In this document: piece after piece, positions 2,588 to 13,580 of the stretch
Numbering within the stretch: position 1 is the stretch's first letter
Layout of the letters: every line of letters starts with the position of its first letter
IMG/VR virus record: IMGVR_UViG_3300012984_000013
Span: 1 to 13,580 of that record
DNA length: 13,580 bases
From: a virus
Taxonomy: Duplodnaviria > Heunggongvirae > Uroviricota > Caudoviricetes
Reading direction: 5' to 3' (one strand)
Position numbers and translations under genes: made by a program
The notes under the pieces: generated by a model
The model's input: only the letters and a program-made list of their open reading frames with translations
The model's database searches: none
Told to the model about the DNA's origin: nothing

Positions 2588-4675
2588 TTATCTATATTCG
2601 TATTTAATATACCCACTAAATACTGTAGCAACTGGAGCAGTTGACCAAGTAGTAGGATTTACCATTTTTATCTCCACGTAATGATTAGCATCTACATCTA
2701 CTGACATAGCTGAATTTGTCCATATTCTTTCTCCAGTTGATACTCCTATTGTTTGAATGAGTGTATCAGTGGTTCCATCTACTCTTACATACATTGACCA
2801 GTTTTCATTAGATCCAGCAGTTGTAGATTGAGAATATATTTCAACATGGGTTATTCTAATATTATCTCTGAAATATATTTTTCGTATATTTGAAGTAGTA
2901 GTAGGTGTATTAGGGTGTATACCGAAGTAATAAGTTGTATTTTGGTTAAGATTGCTACTATGACCTAATAAGTTTAAAACAGATCTACCTATAGTAGTTA
3001 CATCCCTAATTTCTATTGCTCCTGTACTACTATCTCTTGTAAGAATTTGAGTATTAGCACTACCAGTAGCTGGAGTTTGTGTTAATTTGATTATACCTGT
3101 TAGACTATCTAGTTCTATATTACCATCTGCACCAGAACCATTTTTAGCTCCAGATTTTAATAAAATACTACCTCCAGGGTTATTTCCTGTAGTGTATGCG
3201 GCACCACCAAATAATTTAAGTGCTCCTCCATTAACTGTTGAAGCTATACCTGCCTTACCTTTAATATTAAAGGTTGCTGAATTTGATGCAGTAAGTAAAT
3301 GTTCTATTGTAAGATCATCTCCACTATTTTCTCCAAATATAGAGAGGTTACTTGAGTAGGCGCCTATTCTTACCTTGGCTGTGTTACCTTTACCTGTTAT
3401 ATACAGGTCAGCAGTAGCATCCGCTGATCCTACAGTTAGTGATTTTGTACCAGCAATACTAGAGTTACCTAAAGTAATCCCGTCTACTGTTAATATATTT
3501 GTTGTACTATTATATTCAAATCCAGCTTCGCTGCCTACAGTTCCAGATCCAGTAAAATATGCTACTTGTCCACTAGTTCCTGATCCACCAAGTTTAGCAT
3601 TCCAGGTAGAGGCAGACCCTATTCTGGCATCTGCTAACGTACCTGCCCAAGTAATTGTATGATTACTTCCACTTGACACTATTGTAATATTAGTATCATC
3701 TACAAAAAATTGCGTACTTGAAGTAAGTCCGTTTATAGAGGTTATTCCTCCTCCGCCTCCTAATGTTCCTAAAGCTCCCCATGCCATCCATATACCACCA
3801 CCTCTATGTTGAAAAGTTACAGCAGTATTATCAGTAAGCATTGTTGTGGCAACGCCCTCTATTGTTCCAGTTAATGATATATCCCCAGATCCAGCACCTT
3901 TTACTAAGGTAAACGAATGATCCAGCATAACTGACCCAGTAAGATCTATATTAATTGGATTTGTATTAACACAAACTATTGTTTTTCCAAAATCCCCATC
4001 ATTAATAAGGCGATATGCATTAGGATCTAACTCATGAGGATTTTTAAGAACATTATACCAATATCCACCTACTCTAGCATATAGATCAGTAATTGTACTA
4101 CTACTATTGTAGTATATATCACCATTTGCTGGAGTACTAGGGGTGCCTGAATAAGAACCTACATTTATACCAGCATTAGTAGAATTTGGAGTATAGGTAT
4201 GTTTACCTATCCAAGTTTTAACTATATTAGTATCAATTGTCCATACTGTTCCACTACTAGATACAGTAATATCTCCTTTATCACCATCTGTTACCCCACC
4301 TCCTGATGAAGATATAGTAAAGTTAGGATAAATACCTGTAATAGTAACATTTGATCCTTCACTAAGGGTTACTACCTGATCAGGTGCAGTATTAGTAATA
4401 GTAATAGCAGGAGTAGTTATAGGATTAGCTACAAATACACTAATTCCTGTACCTCCAACAGCACTTACTGATGTTACAGTTCCACTACCTCCACCTGAAG
4501 TAATGGTGGAGAATTTCTCATCTATTTTCTGAAGTAATACCTGTAAACTATCATTAGTATTACCTTCTATATAAGGGAGAGTTTCTCCTTCATATATAAC
4601 ACACATACTGCTAAGAAGAATTTGACATCCTCCAGATAGGCATAATGCTGTCTTGTTTGAACAATTACAAGGCAT
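2588..4675 (-). CDS. Tail fibre / receptor-binding-like structural protein
   Basis: 695-aa ORF rich in Gly/Thr/Ser. Has a Cys-rich N-terminal module (CVIYEGETL...SLQVLLQKI), fibre-shaft-type motifs (GTVTSV, DGDKGDITVSSSGTVWTID, ITSINGLT, GTSGQVAYFTG) and a beta-rich C-terminal domain. Sits among virion genes. Confidence 0.7.
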   Translation of the reverse strand: MPCNCSNKTALCLSGGCQILLSSMCVIYEGETLPYIEGNTNDSLQVLLQKIDEKFSTITSGGGSGTVTSVSAVGGTGISVFVANPITTPAITITNTAPDQVVTLSEGSNVTITGIYPNFTISSSGGGVTDGDKGDITVSSSGTVWTIDTNIVKTWIGKHTYTPNSTNAGINVGSYSGTPSTPANGDIYYNSSSTITDLYARVGGYWYNVLKNPHELDPNAYRLINDGDFGKTIVCVNTNPINIDLTGSVMLDHSFTLVKGAGSGDISLTGTIEGVATTMLTDNTAVTFQHRGGGIWMAWGALGTLGGGGGITSINGLTSSTQFFVDDTNITIVSSGSNHTITWAGTLADARIGSASTWNAKLGGSGTSGQVAYFTGSGTVGSEAGFEYNSTTNILTVDGITLGNSSIAGTKSLTVGSADATADLYITGKGNTAKVRIGAYSSNLSIFGENSGDDLTIEHLLTASNSATFNIKGKAGIASTVNGGALKLFGGAAYTTGNNPGGSILLKSGAKNGSGADGNIELDSLTGIIKLTQTPATGSANTQILTRDSSTGAIEIRDVTTIGRSVLNLLGHSSNLNQNTTYYFGIHPNTPTTTSNIRKIYFRDNIRITHVEIYSQSTTAGSNENWSMYVRVDGTTDTLIQTIGVSTGERIWTNSAMSVDVDANHYVEIKMVNPTTWSTAPVATVFSGYIKYEYR

Positions 4676-4712: not shown

Positions 4713-5054
4713 TTACGGTGCTGTAGTAGTGGTAGTAGTGGTGCTACTTGTACTTGTGGTAGTTGTAGTGGTTGCGATTGCACCAATTAAACCCCAGTTT
4801 GGAGAAGTGGTCCCCATTCCTATATATAGGAATTGAGAAGAATTATCAATATAAAGTTGACCTTTAAATTTAGGAACAACAGATGGTACACCTGTACCTT
4901 CCAAAGCTTTAAAAGTATTATTGATAGCGAGGAGTATTTCATCCAAGGAGGTAAGGGGTGGGATTTCTATGGTTGATAGAATCTCACCAGCGTATATAAC
5001 ACAGGCTGCATTAACATACGTTGCACATGTAGGACAAATATCTGCTACTCTCAT
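4713..5054 (-). CDS. Small structural protein with Cys-rich N-terminal module and poly-Thr/Ser C-terminal tail (tail-fibre-related)
   Basis: 113-aa ORF. aa 18-48 align without gaps to aa 25-55 of the 695-aa protein (14/31 identical). Ends in 17 consecutive Thr/Ser residues. Preceded by a TAAATTTG element. Confidence 0.75.
   Translation of the reverse strand: MRVADICPTCATYVNAACVIYAGEILSTIEIPPLTSLDEILLAINNTFKALEGTGVPSVVPKFKGQLYIDNSSQFLYIGMGTTSPNWGLIGAIATTTTTTSTSSTTTTTTTAP
4722..4772 (-). repeat. Low-complexity ACN/AGY codon run encoding TTTTTTSTSSTTTTTTT
   Basis: Read directly: ACC ACT ACA ACT ACC ACA AGT ACA AGT AGC ACC ACT ACT ACC ACT ACT ACA on the minus strand. Confidence 0.95.
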
Positions 5055-8100: not shown

Positions 8101-10020
8101 ATTATTCAAGAATGTTTTAGCAACACCAGCAAGTGGTTGAAAGTCTCTTTTTAAATGAAGTGATCTAATTGATTTAGAAAGCTCATTAAGTCTTTCATTC
8201 TTCAAATGCTGTTCTTCAGGGGATGATATGGTGTTATATATCTTCTTATGATACTCTCTTAAAGACCTTGTTAATTTATCAATGTCCTGATCTCCAGAGG
8301 TTTCTGTATCCAAAGGTACAGGTAATAAGTATAAATTAGGTTCCTTTGTAGGATCTAAATTACCTATTTCTATAGAAGTTAAATGAAGTTTTTTCTTTCT
8401 TTCTATATAATTAGCCTGGAAAGGAATCATTCTAGCCTTTCTAAGCTGTTGAGGTTTAACCCCATAATTATACATCATTTGAGTATATTCCTTCATTTGC
8501 TCATTCCACTCTTTCTTCTTATACCAAGGAATATCTTCCTGATATTCAGTGTTTATACTGGCAAATTTCCAATCGTATATATCCATTTTAAAGCTATCAC
8601 CATCTGGTTCAATAGCTACGAAATCCATAGTAGAGGCAAGTTTTCCCTTTACTTTCTCATTGATAACTTTCTTTTCTGTGATAAACCTAGTTCCAGGTTT
8701 GTAACTATTGATAAGTTCAGTAGCAAATCTTTTCAACTTTTGCTCTACTTTATTATCCAATTCACTGGTTACCTCAATATCTTTAGGAGTTTCAAGGGCA
8801 AAACCTTGCTTATCTATAAGATTAGTTTCTATATAGTTAGCTATATAATTATGTCCTTCAGATCCCCATTGCTTTTTGGCATCATCTTCTGCCTTCTGCT
8901 CAGGTGTCCTTTCTTCAAAATTCTGCTTAGAATTTTCTTTTAATTTCTCAGTAACTGATCTAGCTACTTCTGCTTCATCAAAAGTATAATGACGCTTTTT
9001 ATCCCCCATTTGAGGAACAAGCTCCATTCTTTTGTCTATATCAAGAATCTTATCATAAATAGTATTGACTGATGTATTTCTTTCTATATTATAGAAAGTA
9101 GCATTTTCAATACCTTCAATTTCTTCATTGACTACTTCTCCTGATAGAATAGAGGTGGCTACTTGCTCAAATACATCAATGTTGGCTTTTCTATATTGAC
9201 CTTTAATCCAGTCAAGAATATCTTGCCACATCTGATATACCAGGGATCTATTTTCTTCTTTTGCTAATTCTGGATATTGTTCTAGATTTTCAGACTTATT
9301 AATAATAACTTCAGCAATAAGCTTATCTACAGCTTCTTTTTTAATCTTTCTTATATCTGGCTTACCATTTTCAAGTTGATAGTTTCTAAAACCTTTATAT
9401 AGATTCAAAGTATCTCTATATATCTTAAACCTATCTATCTTAGAGATCATTTCAGTCACTAACTTAGGGTCCTTATGCTCTATAAAATAAGTAGCTATAT
9501 GGACCATTTCTTCAGTAAGAGTTTCATTCTCTTTACCTTCAGCTATAGCTATAACATTATGAGCTAAATCTGCAAGAGCGTTAATACCCGTGGCTTGTAT
9601 TCCTATAACTTTAGCATAGTCTTGTAGACCTTTAAGATCAATACCCATTTTATCAAGTAAACTCTTGATCTTTTTGACAGTAACATCAGAAGCTACTGTT
9701 TGACCTATACCTTGCTCTTTGTTAAACAACACTTCCTGTTTCTCAACAGAAAGAGGTAATACGTTAATATTTAAAGAATGTTTACCATTACCTATAGAAG
9801 GAAGAGTAGCTATACCTGTCCCAAATTTAGCAACAATTTGGGACACAAATTCAGTAGCTTTAGGATAAGAGTTTTTAATAGTAACAAATCTGTTAGCTTC
9901 TCTTCTAAAAGCACCTGAGGACTTAGCATCCTCAAGAATAGTCATGTGGATACCTTCCAAACGAGCTTTCTCTGTTTCAGATAGTTGTGCAGATTGAATA
10001 TAAGGAATTTGACAGGCCAT
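5137..10020 (-). CDS. Large probable virion cargo/ejection protein with N-terminal zincin-like domain, PD-(D/E)xK nuclease domain and helical C-terminal region
   Basis: 1627-aa ORF next to the virion RNAP locus. Motifs: TLTEEMVH (aa 167-174) with a later EAVDKLIAE; SVT / GSEGH / E449 / D466 / DWK (483-485) / QMKEY. The remainder is charged and helical-looking, with a hydrophobic LYILAGLVGLVVAV near the C-terminus. Confidence 0.7.
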   Translation of the reverse strand: MACQIPYIQSAQLSETEKARLEGIHMTILEDAKSSGAFRREANRFVTIKNSYPKATEFVSQIVAKFGTGIATLPSIGNGKHSLNINVLPLSVEKQEVLFNKEQGIGQTVASDVTVKKIKSLLDKMGIDLKGLQDYAKVIGIQATGINALADLAHNVIAIAEGKENETLTEEMVHIATYFIEHKDPKLVTEMISKIDRFKIYRDTLNLYKGFRNYQLENGKPDIRKIKKEAVDKLIAEVIINKSENLEQYPELAKEENRSLVYQMWQDILDWIKGQYRKANIDVFEQVATSILSGEVVNEEIEGIENATFYNIERNTSVNTIYDKILDIDKRMELVPQMGDKKRHYTFDEAEVARSVTEKLKENSKQNFEERTPEQKAEDDAKKQWGSEGHNYIANYIETNLIDKQGFALETPKDIEVTSELDNKVEQKLKRFATELINSYKPGTRFITEKKVINEKVKGKLASTMDFVAIEPDGDSFKMDIYDWKFASINTEYQEDIPWYKKKEWNEQMKEYTQMMYNYGVKPQQLRKARMIPFQANYIERKKKLHLTSIEIGNLDPTKEPNLYLLPVPLDTETSGDQDIDKLTRSLREYHKKIYNTISSPEEQHLKNERLNELSKSIRSLHLKRDFQPLAGVAKTFLNNAAKVFKSFEDVDYTKLSNDEINLRLGELLDIQESAGKFASLDEAFLKHFPKDGLSEDDKDLLTSLEKISSSTRRMLDRIKDIFNNYTVYKATKEGLGESVLSPEIEIGSFAKTFLEGSKLSSKIVRLASNLILKAKSLVDIVVTKLTDKLSPLLVELEKEAKAKGKSAFSLIGNVTSKGLQLISKIDPEFKKDVFKNRKEKKKDFFIENMDMEKYNKLSKEVITRREEEENKKHYSDDKRFDDFKRKQAITKIHQSLDIESKDFNGYEDYDFKRLFWDSLKEEDHLSKEYKEMSETARKTWQFFTDLNIKARQLGYLSGRNGLSFFPLMEATIIEKLLKTNNLLTESGQILKDSYTVRAEEEAAYSKIDEETGELKKEIPKLFTRSNKAVGQLSTDITKVGALWIKALSQYESSRNIENTLLVLHNVEKNKGRIVTDSSGRPIFEGGVPKTIEENEKNSAILETIIDDAVYGLSENLSSIGNIGLSKAVDVAKPDSTEESKEETKLSTKKALTNANKLVQSLAVGLKLLVAIPNYVGFNMQAAINAGRLITFKEFEKNNAKITTNTLSSLEKGLLDKIVPLNEDSSQEARRKLAKKQGFLDYINTWTFHDVMMVTNSFPDRLLQFASALSFLENTMIVDGKMVNIRQYVREQDREAKKDLAYEDRRELEKSYENRVKKLKDEKSLVKVAKLTDEGVDIPGVSDEELAKYRVKIIEYTRNLSGQMNQNNKADYRRDTILKSFMMFKGWIPKQVSLRTLDINKNLELDQWEYGRTRAFVKTIQHLGFRNIANIRDILLGTDKGLSILKDIYDKKKEAYYQKTGQELEISEQEFYDLMRDEIQNQVKELYILAGLVGLVVAVKLAEPPEDEDDKHSINQYKFWAKASNKIMDELWFYYNPLSFESMTRGSVIPALGLAVKAERFFEALGKETYARAIDDQQMIDKTHPLKYFLNLMPVGSQIQNEILPIIDPEAAKEMGIRVSAEARAMR

Positions 10021-10508
10021 TAATTGGTTGTTAAGAAATAATAAAAGTTAACTAAAAAGTGACAAGCTACAGAAGAAATGTAAGAATATCCATTTTTAAG
10101 ATAAACATAACAGAATAATAATCCAGCCACTCCTTGTATAGGAACACTCCATGCTCCTTGGCTATGAATGTATCCGAAAAGAGTAGATGAAAATAGGACA
10201 TATAATAATATTATTTTCTCATGTTCGAATTTTTTAAGTAAACTAAGGGGTTTTCTAAAAAAGACCTCCTCTACCAATGGAGCTAATATACACATAGATA
10301 TAAAGGAGTGTATAGTAGACTCAACAAACATAAATTGTAATTTAATTGTTCCAAATTCTGGAATAAACGATTTATATATAAACAAGATGAAAGTAGCCCA
10401 CATAATATAAGCTGCGGCTCCAAAAATAATGTTTTTAATTTTTCCCAGAGTGGTTGTTTCTGGAGTGTGGAGCAGTTCTAGCTCCAACTTACCTATTAAG
10501 TTTCTCAT
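10020..10508 (-). CDS. CPBP family (Abi/CAAX/Rce1-like) intramembrane glutamic/metalloprotease
   Basis: 162-aa hydrophobic ORF with several TM-like segments and the family motifs in order: APLVEEVFFR (EExxxR), FGYIH (FxxxH), HFLVN (HxxxN). Confidence 0.9.
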   Translation of the reverse strand: MRNLIGKLELELLHTPETTTLGKIKNIIFGAAAYIMWATFILFIYKSFIPEFGTIKLQFMFVESTIHSFISMCILAPLVEEVFFRKPLSLLKKFEHEKIILLYVLFSSTLFGYIHSQGAWSVPIQGVAGLLFCYVYLKNGYSYISSVACHFLVNFYYFLTTN

Positions 10509-10509
10509 A

Positions 10510-13500
10510 TTAAATACAATTAGGAAGTATATCTGTTCCGTCTTTCTTCACTTTACTTATTTTTTCAACCTTAGGAGGATATAGTACATTCTCTATAGTT
10601 ACATCAGGTACTTCATCAACCTTAATGAACCCATTATCTATTACAGACTGTTGAGGAATATTGTAGAATTCATTAGCTCTATATGAATCACCCCAAGCAT
10701 TTACAGCCTTAAATATGTTAGATATAGTAGTTTTACCAGCCTTATTAGTATAAGAAGTAGTTAATGGAAGATCATTATCTCCATAAACCTTCTGGAAAAG
10801 ACCTTTCTGAATATAAGAATAGTCACCTTTACTTCTCATTTCTTTCTTCAATTCCTTATCTTTCTTATAGCTAGCAGAAAGTGTTTTCTCCCATGAGTAT
10901 ACAACAAACTCAGATCTACCTTCCTTGGTATAAGGAGATAACTGGATAGTTTCAGGTATTTTATTCTCTCTGACCGCTTTCTTTAGCTTATTATCCAAGA
11001 ATTCTCTCTCAGGAGCATATACATACTTCTTCTCATATCCTGTATAGAAGTCAACAAATGGGGTTTTTAACTTCAGTAATTGTGCCTTTTTGTTAGGTAC
11101 AATATCATCATTAGCCCAGTTATTTCTTTCAAATACATTAATATCCTTAAATTGTTGCAAATTAGGTAATTTATCTAATATAGACAAGGTTTCGTTGTAT
11201 ATATTTTTGAAATCTTCATAAGGAAGAAGATGAGTAAATGATATCTTAGAAGCAGCTAATCCTGACTGTAGTACAGCCACACCTATAATCTTGTTATAAA
11301 GGTGCTGTTCTTCAGGAAGAAGGCTCTTTTTAAGCTCATAAAACCCATAAATTATATGATTTTGGTCATATACCTTGTTATTCTTACCTACAATATAGAG
11401 GTTATTAGGGGTATTTTCCCTAACACTATCACTTGTTTGCTTTATAGAATTGACAATAAAGTTGTTATGTAAAGGATGGTCCTTATCCTTTTTAACCTTA
11501 TTTACAAAGTCCATTATCTGCTTTGTAGCAGATTCCTGGGTATCTGAACCTAATAGGATATCCTTTATACGGGAGTTTATTTTACTATTAGTCTGTACAG
11601 CCCAATCAAATAGATCAGAAACTGCTTTTTGACTAATTTTAACAAAGTCCCTATCATTGTTATTTACATAAGGAAGTAATACTTGCTCCATTACACCTCT
11701 TACAGAATTAGGTTTATCTGAAATAAGGATAGTTGAGAACGCATTTCTTATGTCGTTTATTCTCTTATGTATAGTACCTACAAAGGAGTTGTTCAAGAGG
11801 TCATCTACAGAGCTAATCATTGTAGTTCTGGCCTTTTGAAGCTGTATTTCCTTCTTAAAGGTAATGAAAGGATCACTTATAGTAGCTGTGTCAAAGTTAC
11901 TACCTTGCTGTACATGGAATAAATGCTCTGCCAACTTGGCATATTTGAAGAATTCATCAAGTATAAACAACTGTTCTGCTTTCTCTTTATCAGTCAAACT
12001 GTCAGTATCCTTAGACATAGTTGTCTTAAGTGCTGATTCAGAAGGAATCTGAGTTAACACTATATTTGATCCCTGATAGGATGACTTGGTAAGTTTTGCA
12101 ATATTATCATTGAATAACCAGCTATATCCTGCATTTTCAAGCTCTCTTAAGTAGTCTCTTACAATAGGTTGGTTCATAAAGTAGGCTACTGTATTAATAG
12201 GCACACCTAATTTAATCAAGAACAACCATGTAGAGGCTGTATTAGGAGTAGCTCCTAACTGCATAATCCAAGGACCCTTTGAAATATCCACATATCCATC
12301 AATAAACTGACCTATAATATCAGATATAAGCTGTCCATCTTTGTTTTTGGACAAGGATAAGGTAGGTTTTCCATTAATTTCATTAAATTCTTTGAACTTA
12401 ATTTTACCGTCTCCTAACCACTTTTTGTCATCATCTGGTTGAGTATCCAGTTTAGAATAATCAATGTGGATGAAAGCTCTTTGGTTCTGAGCATTATTAG
12501 TTTGAGAAGTAGCTGCTATACCAATAGCGTATTTACCTCTAACAAAGGCTTGTCTTAAAGAAGACATAAAGTTCCTATCCAATATATTTTTTACGTCAGT
12601 ATAGTCAAATTTAACCTGTTTAGTAGCATTTACTACTTGTTCAGATAATCCTTTTAATTGATCTGCTGAGTTAGGAGTTATTAATCTCTCAAAGTTAAGA
12701 GGGTCTGAAGTCAACTTTTCTAATGACTTAATGTACTCATTCTCAAGTGATTGTCTATATTTCTCTTCAACTACTTTGTCTTTAAATTCTTTGTCATCCT
12801 TGGAATCAAGTAAGTCATCCATAACCTCCTGGACATAGCTATCTTCATAGGATTGCTTTCCAAATATAGCAGTAAATAGGTTATCAATAACCTCATCTTT
12901 ATCTTCTATCTTTCTATTTTTAATCCATTTATTAGCTTTAGCTCTATCCTTTTCAGATAAGAAGTTTCCTTCATCGTACATTTGAGCCAGCTTATCTTTA
13001 GATTTCTGACCATATCCTGAGAATGGAACTTCTTTAGTCTTACCACTTAAGGTATTATATGTGTTTTTAAGGTAGATTGAAAGTTTATCAATATCAAAGT
13101 CAGATCCTACTTTCTTAACAAGAGCAGAAGGAATGATTACAGAATCGCCAAATTCTTCAGGTAAGAATTGCTTTATTCTGAATACATCAATAGAGTTCTG
13201 TTTTTGTGTAGGGATACGGAAACCTATACCTCCTAATACACCAGATTCATTGAGTTCTTTGATAAGCTCCTCATCTGTTTTTTCAGATTTGAACCATCTT
13301 CCAACCATTATTTCACAGACTCTTTTACCATCCTCATCTTCATAGAACTTAAGAATATCTGAAGTATAAGCTCCTTTTTCTTCTTTAGCTCTTACAGATT
13401 CCAATAAAGTAGATGGTACTTGTACTTTCATACCTCCAGAAATAGTAGGTCTGATAACTTGCTTATTAGCAATAGCGTATAGAATATTCCTTATTTGCTG

Positions 13501-13580
13501 GTATGCAGGAGTAGCTTCAAGTACTACATCTCCAGTCTTAAATCCTTCAAAAGCTGAAATAATGTTGTCATTAACCTCTC
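10510..13580 (-). CDS. Virion-associated DNA-dependent RNA polymerase of crAss-like phage type (beta'-like catalytic part), 5' truncated by the window edge
   Basis: Contains GFRIPTQ and VGSDFDIDKL (DFDID at 13087-13101), plus IGIAA and YVDISKGPW segments. The frame stays open upstream of the ORF-track Met at 13431 to the window end (EVNDNIISAFEGFKTGDVVLEATPAYQQIRNILYAIANKQVIRPTISGG-MKVQVP), so the real start lies outside the window. Confidence 0.9.
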   Translation of the reverse strand, partial: EVNDNIISAFEGFKTGDVVLEATPAYQQIRNILYAIANKQVIRPTISGGMKVQVPSTLLESVRAKEEKGAYTSDILKFYEDEDGKRVCEIMVGRWFKSEKTDEELIKELNESGVLGGIGFRIPTQKQNSIDVFRIKQFLPEEFGDSVIIPSALVKKVGSDFDIDKLSIYLKNTYNTLSGKTKEVPFSGYGQKSKDKLAQMYDEGNFLSEKDRAKANKWIKNRKIEDKDEVIDNLFTAIFGKQSYEDSYVQEVMDDLLDSKDDKEFKDKVVEEKYRQSLENEYIKSLEKLTSDPLNFERLITPNSADQLKGLSEQVVNATKQVKFDYTDVKNILDRNFMSSLRQAFVRGKYAIGIAATSQTNNAQNQRAFIHIDYSKLDTQPDDDKKWLGDGKIKFKEFNEINGKPTLSLSKNKDGQLISDIIGQFIDGYVDISKGPWIMQLGATPNTASTWLFLIKLGVPINTVAYFMNQPIVRDYLRELENAGYSWLFNDNIAKLTKSSYQGSNIVLTQIPSESALKTTMSKDTDSLTDKEKAEQLFILDEFFKYAKLAEHLFHVQQGSNFDTATISDPFITFKKEIQLQKARTTMISSVDDLLNNSFVGTIHKRINDIRNAFSTILISDKPNSVRGVMEQVLLPYVNNNDRDFVKISQKAVSDLFDWAVQTNSKINSRIKDILLGSDTQESATKQIMDFVNKVKKDKDHPLHNNFIVNSIKQTSDSVRENTPNNLYIVGKNNKVYDQNHIIYGFYELKKSLLPEEQHLYNKIIGVAVLQSGLAASKISFTHLLPYEDFKNIYNETLSILDKLPNLQQFKDINVFERNNWANDDIVPNKKAQLLKLKTPFVDFYTGYEKKYVYAPEREFLDNKLKKAVRENKIPETIQLSPYTKEGRSEFVVYSWEKTLSASYKKDKELKKEMRSKGDYSYIQKGLFQKVYGDNDLPLTTSYTNKAGKTTISNIFKAVNAWGDSYRANEFYNIPQQSVIDNGFIKVDEVPDVTIENVLYPPKVEKISKVKKDGTDILPNCI

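Follow-up and report, generated by a model that had tools for sequence, protein, structure and literature searches.

Introduction

Why should a gene for an intramembrane protease stand between the virion RNA polymerase (RNAP) gene and the next virion-protein gene of a crAss-like phage? The question is raised by the virus record IMGVR_UViG_3300012984_000013, a virulent-type crAss-like phage genome of 118,792 bp with a guanine-plus-cytosine (GC) content of 32.4%, which is rated 100% complete in IMG/VR. The window, that is, the whole stretch of DNA analysed here, is the first 13.6 kb (13,580 nt) of this record, and the gene in question, which encodes a CPBP/Rce1-like protein (P0001), is located at 10020–10508 on the minus strand. 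An earlier note on this DNA, made from the letters alone, had proposed that the gene could belong to a protease-controlled injection module. The comparison with related phages shows instead a clade-specific accessory insert at a junction which accepts other inserts too. The explanation preferred here, with a probability of roughly 0.6, is that the gene is an accessory gene for a real, late-made protease of the host membrane, which would have been inserted once, kept by selection and lost at least once.

The CPBP Gene and Its Active Site

The open reading frame (ORF) comprises 162 codons plus a stop codon and is joined tightly to both of its neighbours. On the upstream side, the RNAP stop codon TAA (10512–10510) is separated by one base from the CPBP initiation codon ATG (10508–10506), which gives the junction TAA-T-ATG at 10506–10512. 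On the downstream side, the last A of the CPBP stop codon TAA (10022–10020) is also the first base of the ATG (10020–10018) of a gp65-like gene, which gives the junction TAATG at 10018–10022. Both junctions can be read directly from the sequence, so the coupling described in the earlier note stands, and the interval 10018–10512 given there is the ORF together with the overlapping codons of the neighbours. As was also said there, no repeats bracket the gene in the sequence around it, and its GC content of about 31% is the same as that of the flanks.

The 162-aa protein matches PF02517 (Rce1-like) with an E-value of 9.7e-15 and 55.1 bits, against a gathering threshold of 22.4, and the three motifs of the family are all in place, which confirms that this is an intact CPBP-family protease gene. 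Motif 1, E80-E81-V-F-F-R85 (EEVFFR, 10254–10271), carries the catalytic Glu pair and the Arg, and is followed by motif 2, F111-G-Y-I-H115 (FGYIH, 10164–10178), and motif 3, H150-F-L-V-N154 (HFLVN, 10047–10061), all on the minus strand and with exactly the residue numbering given before. In an alignment of 94 members of the family, whose columns are 31% identical on average, P77, E80, F111, H115, H150 and N154 are invariant, and E81 and R85 are conserved in at least 90%; in the close clade of 12 members all three motifs are invariant, E80, E81 and R85 included. Judged by these residues, the phage protein is predicted to be a catalytically competent endopeptidase of the glutamic intramembrane type.

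As for the subfamily, the best NCBIfam matches remain below their cut-offs, namely MrtJ (NF033192, 30.5 bits against 75) and the exosortase E/protease family (TIGR04162, 24.4 against 150); the similarity to both lies over the catalytic core, and no gene for a CTERM-tagged substrate was seen. The features of Rce1 proper are likewise missing, for only five long helices are modelled instead of eight and the C-terminal Cys of the RNAP does not form a CAAX box. In bacteria, no prenylated CAAX substrate is to be expected. That is to say, the phage CPBP is neither an Rce1 orthologue nor a member of the MrtJ/CTERM-sorting subfamily, and in PHROGs there is no family for it.

Predicted Structure of the Phage CPBP

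When the protein was modelled by AlphaFold (AF2) with 12 close homologues, the predicted local distance difference test score (pLDDT) was 53 and the model was discarded, whereas the alignment of 94 members gave a model with a pLDDT of 94.1 and a predicted template modelling score (pTM) of 0.89. In this model, a short N-terminal helix is followed by five long membrane helices (20–48, 65–94, 97–113, 118–138 and 143–161). As far as sequence and model go, the protein is a minimal CPBP, composed of the catalytic four-helix core with its active site intact, one further helix and the short N-terminal helix, which is conserved. It carries the three defining motifs of the CPBP/Rce1 family, of which MmRce1 (4CAD) and SpdC (6U0O) are solved members, in the proper order on successive membrane helices, but MmRce1 has eight helices.

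In an exhaustive structural alignment against 48,161 representative PDB chains, SpdC was ranked first (6u0o_A; Z 9.3, root-mean-square deviation (rmsd) 4.4, 140 aligned residues) and MmRce1 second (4cad_C; Z 7.2, rmsd 4.2, 135 aligned), Z-scores which are modest for helical proteins, while all other chains remained at 5.6 or below. With both solved CPBP folds heading the PDB ranking, the model can be assigned to the CPBP fold. All of the 30 best AlphaFold-DB clusters were also CPBP/CAAX entries, with template modelling (TM) scores up to 0.73. Foldseek with the same model found no PDB match at E ≤ 0.001, and the only match in a profile search of PDB sequences was 4cad, at E 0.43.

A CPBP fold need not imply proteolysis, and the first rival explanation starts here. 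The phage protein would then be a non-proteolytic scaffold or regulator, which rewires a host envelope enzyme or a sensor kinase late in infection. The models for it are SpdC with SagB, Abx1/CflP of group B Streptococcus (GBS) with CovS, and an LnsB-like partner in acyl transfer; the top structural match is indeed SpdC in its complex with SagB, and bacterial CPBPs acting without proteolysis are known in Abx1 (PMC3578759), CflP (PMC13692083) and LnsB (PMC7387801). Nevertheless, this explanation is improbable, because residues E80, E81, R85, H115, H150 and N154 show little or no variation in 94 diverged members, and near-invariance of catalytic residues at such a low mean identity is the pattern expected of an enzyme. 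Whereas the SpdC-type scaffolds have presumably lost these residues, the phage CPBP keeps all of them. Moreover, no gene for a partner of this kind is linked to it.

The RNAP/gp65-Like Junction in Related Phages

Eleven homologues of the CPBP with 54–77% identity were found in public metagenomes, and wherever flanks are available (L002–L011, L012 and L047), the order is RNAP C-terminus, CPBP and gp65-like N-terminus. A search for related loci in IMG/VR, with P0001 alone and then with the 12-sequence alignment, returned no relatives. Since relatives that are found through the CPBP itself form a biased sample, the N-terminal part of the gp65-like protein was used instead to query metagenome contigs for the junction. 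In this way 66 loci were found, of which 55 span the junction, from the 3′ end of the RNAP gene to the beginning of the gp65-like gene. In 52 of these 55, contigs for which the survey covers the junction only, one gene follows the other directly at a spacing of −59 to +12 nt; a CPBP was present in one (L047, 160 aa), and unrelated inserts in two. These inserts are a 538-aa ORF at 923–2539 of L065, and two ORFs of 226 and 161 aa at 1964–3129 of L078. In the CPBP carriers L002–L004, a homing endonuclease of the HNH/DUF723 type is inserted after the CPBP (in L002 at 10468–11400). The junction is a hot spot for insertions.

The phylogeny of the gp65-like protein points the same way. The carriers, namely the window, L002, L005, L012 and L047, fall into one clade with a Shimodaira–Hasegawa-like approximate likelihood-ratio (SH-aLRT) support of 99. 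Inside this clade, as the sister of L002 (support 99), stands L046, a contig whose RNAP and gp65-like proteins are 67% identical to those of the window, and which has a 10-nt spacer between the two genes in place of the CPBP. The simplest history of the CPBP at this junction is one gain and one loss. A relative with a complete genome of 125 kb (G005, RNAP C-terminus 54% identical) contains no CPBP anywhere according to a profile search, and the same profile, as a positive control, detected a single copy in each of the genomes G001–G004. In phi14:2, cr108_1 and the Leptolyngbya phage Lbo-JY46, a CPBP was likewise not found.

The earlier note was therefore right not to count a CPBP among the standard genes of the crAss RNAP/cargo block, as 52 of 55 related junctions have no intervening gene. 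The injection module proposed on the same occasion is not supported: L046 and G005 do without the CPBP, unrelated genes occupy the same junction, and the position of the CPBP varies among phages. The note had itself stated that close relatives lacking the gene, or carrying unrelated genes at the site, would speak against its idea, and this is largely what was found. Because most relatives are without it, the CPBP is to be regarded as an optional add-on rather than as part of the machinery for DNA injection.

The Wider Mini-CPBP Family

When 1.84 billion representatives were searched with a profile, 2820 matches were obtained at E ≤ 1e-3, of which 262 were at E ≤ 1e-10. Among the best 150 of these matches, all at E ≤ 2.7e-15, nearly all proteins are 130–190 aa in length and cover the full query. 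The family consists of mini-CPBPs of about 140–170 aa, which are scattered in the late or structural modules of many uncultured crAss-like phages. In every phage context sampled, the CPBP gene is co-oriented with the genes of a late or structural module, at a position which varies from phage to phage. In L020, for example, its neighbours encode a 4261-aa protein with RNAP homology on one side and a 2648-aa protein on the other; in L015, L017, L018, L021 and L023 it precedes the crAss-type TerL (phrog_6681) and portal genes by a few kb; and in L022, L025 and L026 it comes after a conserved block of five genes inside the structural region, the members of the last two being 141–145 aa long. L024 and L027 show still other positions. 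In the 165-kb phages G002 and G003 it is tens of kb away from the RNAP gene. No neighbouring gene family is common to the sampled contexts.

Small relatives of the protein also occur in metagenome-assembled genomes (MAGs) of Patescibacteria, one of them clearly chromosomal, together with RecA, FtsK and CofD. A strictly phage-specific family was considered and rejected on account of this chromosomal member; the mini-CPBPs are not exclusive to phages. When P0001 and a second member of the family, P0092, were compared by tblastn with 50,697 deposited phage genomes, no match was obtained, and the literature searched contains nothing on CPBPs in crAss-like phages. Other viral CPBPs are known from BFVD, such as Bacillus phage G gp60, a 'CAAX protease self-immunity' protein of Siphoviridae sp. 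ctHip2 and the CAAX proteases of giant viruses. These are optional cargo as well, but they are only 17–23% identical, longer (about 210–280 aa) and encoded by unrelated groups of viruses.

Candidate Substrates at the Locus

If the CPBP were a dedicated partner of its neighbours, a substrate signal might be sought in them. The RNAP gene ends at 10513–10524 of the window with a conserved Cys at the C-terminus or one residue from it, in a P-x-C-x motif: the C-termini read PNCI, PECL, PKCV and PNCA, as well as QECK in phi14:2, NLCK in cr108_1 and QGC in L020. The gp65-like protein begins (10012–10020) with M-A/S-C, as in MACQIPY of the window and MSCKLQ of phi14:2; the feature was noted in the window and in L013 and L014. 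This pair of terminal Cys residues is kept across crAss-like phages whether they have a CPBP or not, and it might form a metal or disulfide contact between the RNAP and the gp65-like virion proteins. As a CAAX-like substrate signal, the terminal Cys of the RNAP and the MAC of the gp65-like protein were rejected, since phi14:2 and cr108_1 have both of them but no CPBP; in addition, the Cys of the RNAP stands as C-x-COOH or C-COOH, not as CAAX.

The gp65-like protein contains one hydrophobic segment similar to a transmembrane (TM) helix, at aa 1483–1501, about 130–145 aa from its C-terminus. The segment is conserved in the gp65-like proteins of the window, L002, L012, phi14:2 and cr108_1, and may be a membrane-insertion element of this family of ejected proteins. 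As a CPBP-specific substrate it was rejected, since it occurs in phages without a CPBP too, which also speaks against the injection module. The zincin that had been placed next door was not found either: no HExxH motif exists in the 1627-aa gp65-like protein of the window or in the RNAP. Thus, neither the terminal Cys, nor the hydrophobic segment, nor a zincin motif ties the CPBP to its neighbours.

There is still a rival explanation in which the CPBP is the dedicated partner of ejection or cargo proteins and matures or clears them, for instance at this hydrophobic segment. It can draw on the translational coupling between the RNAP and gp65-like genes, on the same arrangement in about ten related contigs, on its recurrence in the distant L020 between two giant proteins, the first of them with RNAP homology, and on the TM-like segment itself. 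Against these stand the 52 of 55 related phages in which the two genes adjoin without an insert, the lack of a CPBP in the complete genome G005 and in L046, the sister of a carrier, the equal presence of the segment in phi14:2 gp65 and the cr108_1 protein, the distance from the RNAP in G002 and G003, and the want of any constant neighbour. A dedicated role in ejection is thus quite unlikely, a little more so than that of a scaffold.

Control of lysis is a further rival explanation, according to which a late membrane protease would process a holin, an antiholin, a spanin or a signal-anchored endolysin. The late-operon position in all contexts seen is compatible with it, and small proteins with 1–3 TM segments are encoded just upstream of the CPBP in L018, L023 and L024. 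However, the small TM proteins of the different contexts are not homologous to one another, no endolysin or holin can be recognised beside the CPBP in the window, and most relatives lyse their hosts without a CPBP, so that such a role is very doubtful.

Selection on the Gene

The comparison among relatives which the earlier note had proposed shows purifying rather than relaxed selection. The ratio of nonsynonymous to synonymous substitution rates (dN/dS) of the CPBP is about 0.11–0.16 against L005, L002 and L011, and 0.30 against L012, values which are approximate only because dS is saturated (>1); the proportion of nonsynonymous differences (pN) is far below that of synonymous ones (pS). The ratio is equal to or lower than that of the flanking genes, and between the window and L005 the CPBP reaches 78% identity, against about 59–60% for the flanks. 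The gene is, by this sequence comparison, under purifying selection. Taken together, purifying selection and invariant catalytic residues indicate that the CPBP is a functional accessory gene.

The weakest explanation, a hitch-hiking or selfish insert without benefit to the phage at an insertion-prone junction, can call on the HNH/DUF723 gene of L002–L004, the unrelated inserts of L065 and L078 and the loss in L046, yet it is highly improbable in view of clear purifying selection, with 54–78% protein identity at saturated synonymous sites, of invariant catalytic motifs, and of a gene that has no mobility gene of its own, no flanking repeats and a fully ameliorated base composition.

Proposed Role in the Infected Cell

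The accessory-protease explanation can be set out as follows. The CPBP gene would have been inserted once, exactly between the virion RNAP and gp65-like genes, within a small clade of crAss-like phages from aquatic habitats, where purifying selection would have retained it, with at least one later loss. Since translation of the gene is coupled to that of late virion genes, the protein is most likely made late in infection. Rather than being packaged, it would go into the cytoplasmic membrane of the host, where its substrate would be a protein or peptide embedded in the membrane or close to it.

What the cleavage would be good for can be approached from the bacterial members of the family. The Abi CPBP immunity proteins, such as PlnI and SkkI, are small and stand-alone, depend on the conserved motifs and act on membrane-associated peptides. 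MroQ of S. aureus is a regulatory CPBP protease (PMC9388083) to which the phage protein may be compared, as MroQ too is a small stand-alone CPBP with conserved motifs needed for function and membrane-associated peptides as targets. In contrast to MroQ and the Abi proteins, the phage gene is set in a late operon, and the homology with them is limited to the shared family domain. Since the CPBP is dispensable in sister phages and has no fixed partner, a self-sufficient fitness function can be argued for. By analogy, this function may tentatively be placed among protective, immunity-like or exclusion-like functions in the infected cell. With the Abi/CPBP immunity proteins of bacteria and the CPBP morons of prophages as models, a function resembling immunity or exclusion seems more probable than one on which ejection depends.

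Several observations weigh against this explanation or parts of it. The protective role is drawn from analogy: the CPBP has no linkage to a gene for a bacteriocin, a receptor or a defence function, no defence family of PADLOC-DB matches it at E ≤ 0.01, and no gene for a bacteriocin, a peptide pheromone or a small secreted peptide stands beside it, its neighbours being the RNAP, gp65-like and tail-fibre-like genes. The tight coupling to two virion-protein genes fits a virion-linked role as well, and the saturation of dS makes the strength of selection approximate. The CPBP of L012 (5532–5990) is only about 38–49% identical to that of the window, its RNAP and gp65-like flanks being 54–61% identical, and on the CPBP tree it is placed apart from the clade of the window; it may represent the replacement of a cassette at the same site, or fast divergence. 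From its placement it follows that the history of the site may include replacement and not a single gain. On the same tree, the RNAP-adjacent proteins stand in three places, and the well-supported branches are compatible with a single origin.

A bolder version of the accessory-protease explanation, which is rather unlikely as it stands, concerns the mini-CPBPs of aquatic crAss-like phages as a class. They would be unrecognised effectors of phage conflict, that is, late intramembrane proteases by which superinfecting phages are excluded or a defence sensor in the membrane is put out of action. They would cut an inner-membrane protein of the host, or the channel-forming ejection proteins of incoming phages, and the gene would move among late-operon positions as a self-sufficient cassette of one gene.

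Neighbouring Genes and Possible Host

The neighbouring genes are also located on the minus strand. The crAss-type virion RNAP gene occupies 10510–13580 with its 3′ part and continues to 21819 of the genome; its ORF is 3769 aa in full (10510–21819), of which the C-terminal 1022 aa lie inside the window, and it was identified by tblastn to phi14:2 gp66 and other crAss RNAPs. As far as shown, it is a neighbour of the CPBP, and a functional partnership is not claimed. On the other side of the CPBP, the gp65-like post-RNAP protein gene (P0003, 5137–10020) encodes 1627 aa with weak homology to the post-RNAP protein of cr108_1.

Then follow the genes for two tail-fibre-like proteins, one of 113 aa (4713–5054) and one of 695 aa (2588–4675), which have in common a Cys-rich N-terminal module (C..C…C.IY.GE.L..I). 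The 113-aa protein is closed by a poly-Thr/Ser tail, and the pair resembles a tail-fibre adaptor module accompanied by a short paralogue. At the end of the window, an 855-aa protein (17–2584) carries a C-terminal GDSL/SGNH esterase domain at aa 618–797, with a Pfam E-value of 2.6e-7 that is just under the threshold; it fits a tailspike with a deacetylase module.

Two further genes were noted outside the window. The phage has a RecA homologue (genome 101263–102228, plus strand), which shares 35–36% identity with the RecA proteins of two Patescibacteria MAG contigs, L030 and L033, and 38% with the RecA of L027, a viral contig; small CPBPs are present on all three contigs. For TerL (genome 48447–50495, minus strand), the nearest cultured phage is the Leptolyngbya (cyanobacterial) phage Lbo-JY46 with 39% identity, the identity to Cellulophaga and Flavobacterium phages being about 30%. 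The host of this group of phages may not belong to the Bacteroidota.

Significance

The idea of a membrane protease that controls the ejection of crAss-type genomes was attractive but is unsupported, and it is removed here. What takes its place is an ordinary member of a known family in a phage setting that is undescribed in the literature searched: a compact CPBP, evidently active to judge from its residues, as a mobile accessory gene that recurs, one copy per genome, in uncultured crAss-like phages of aquatic habitats. If its substrate is found, the protein would join the small number of intramembrane proteases from phages whose role is known, and it would also offer a very small and tractable model of the Rce1/CPBP catalytic core.

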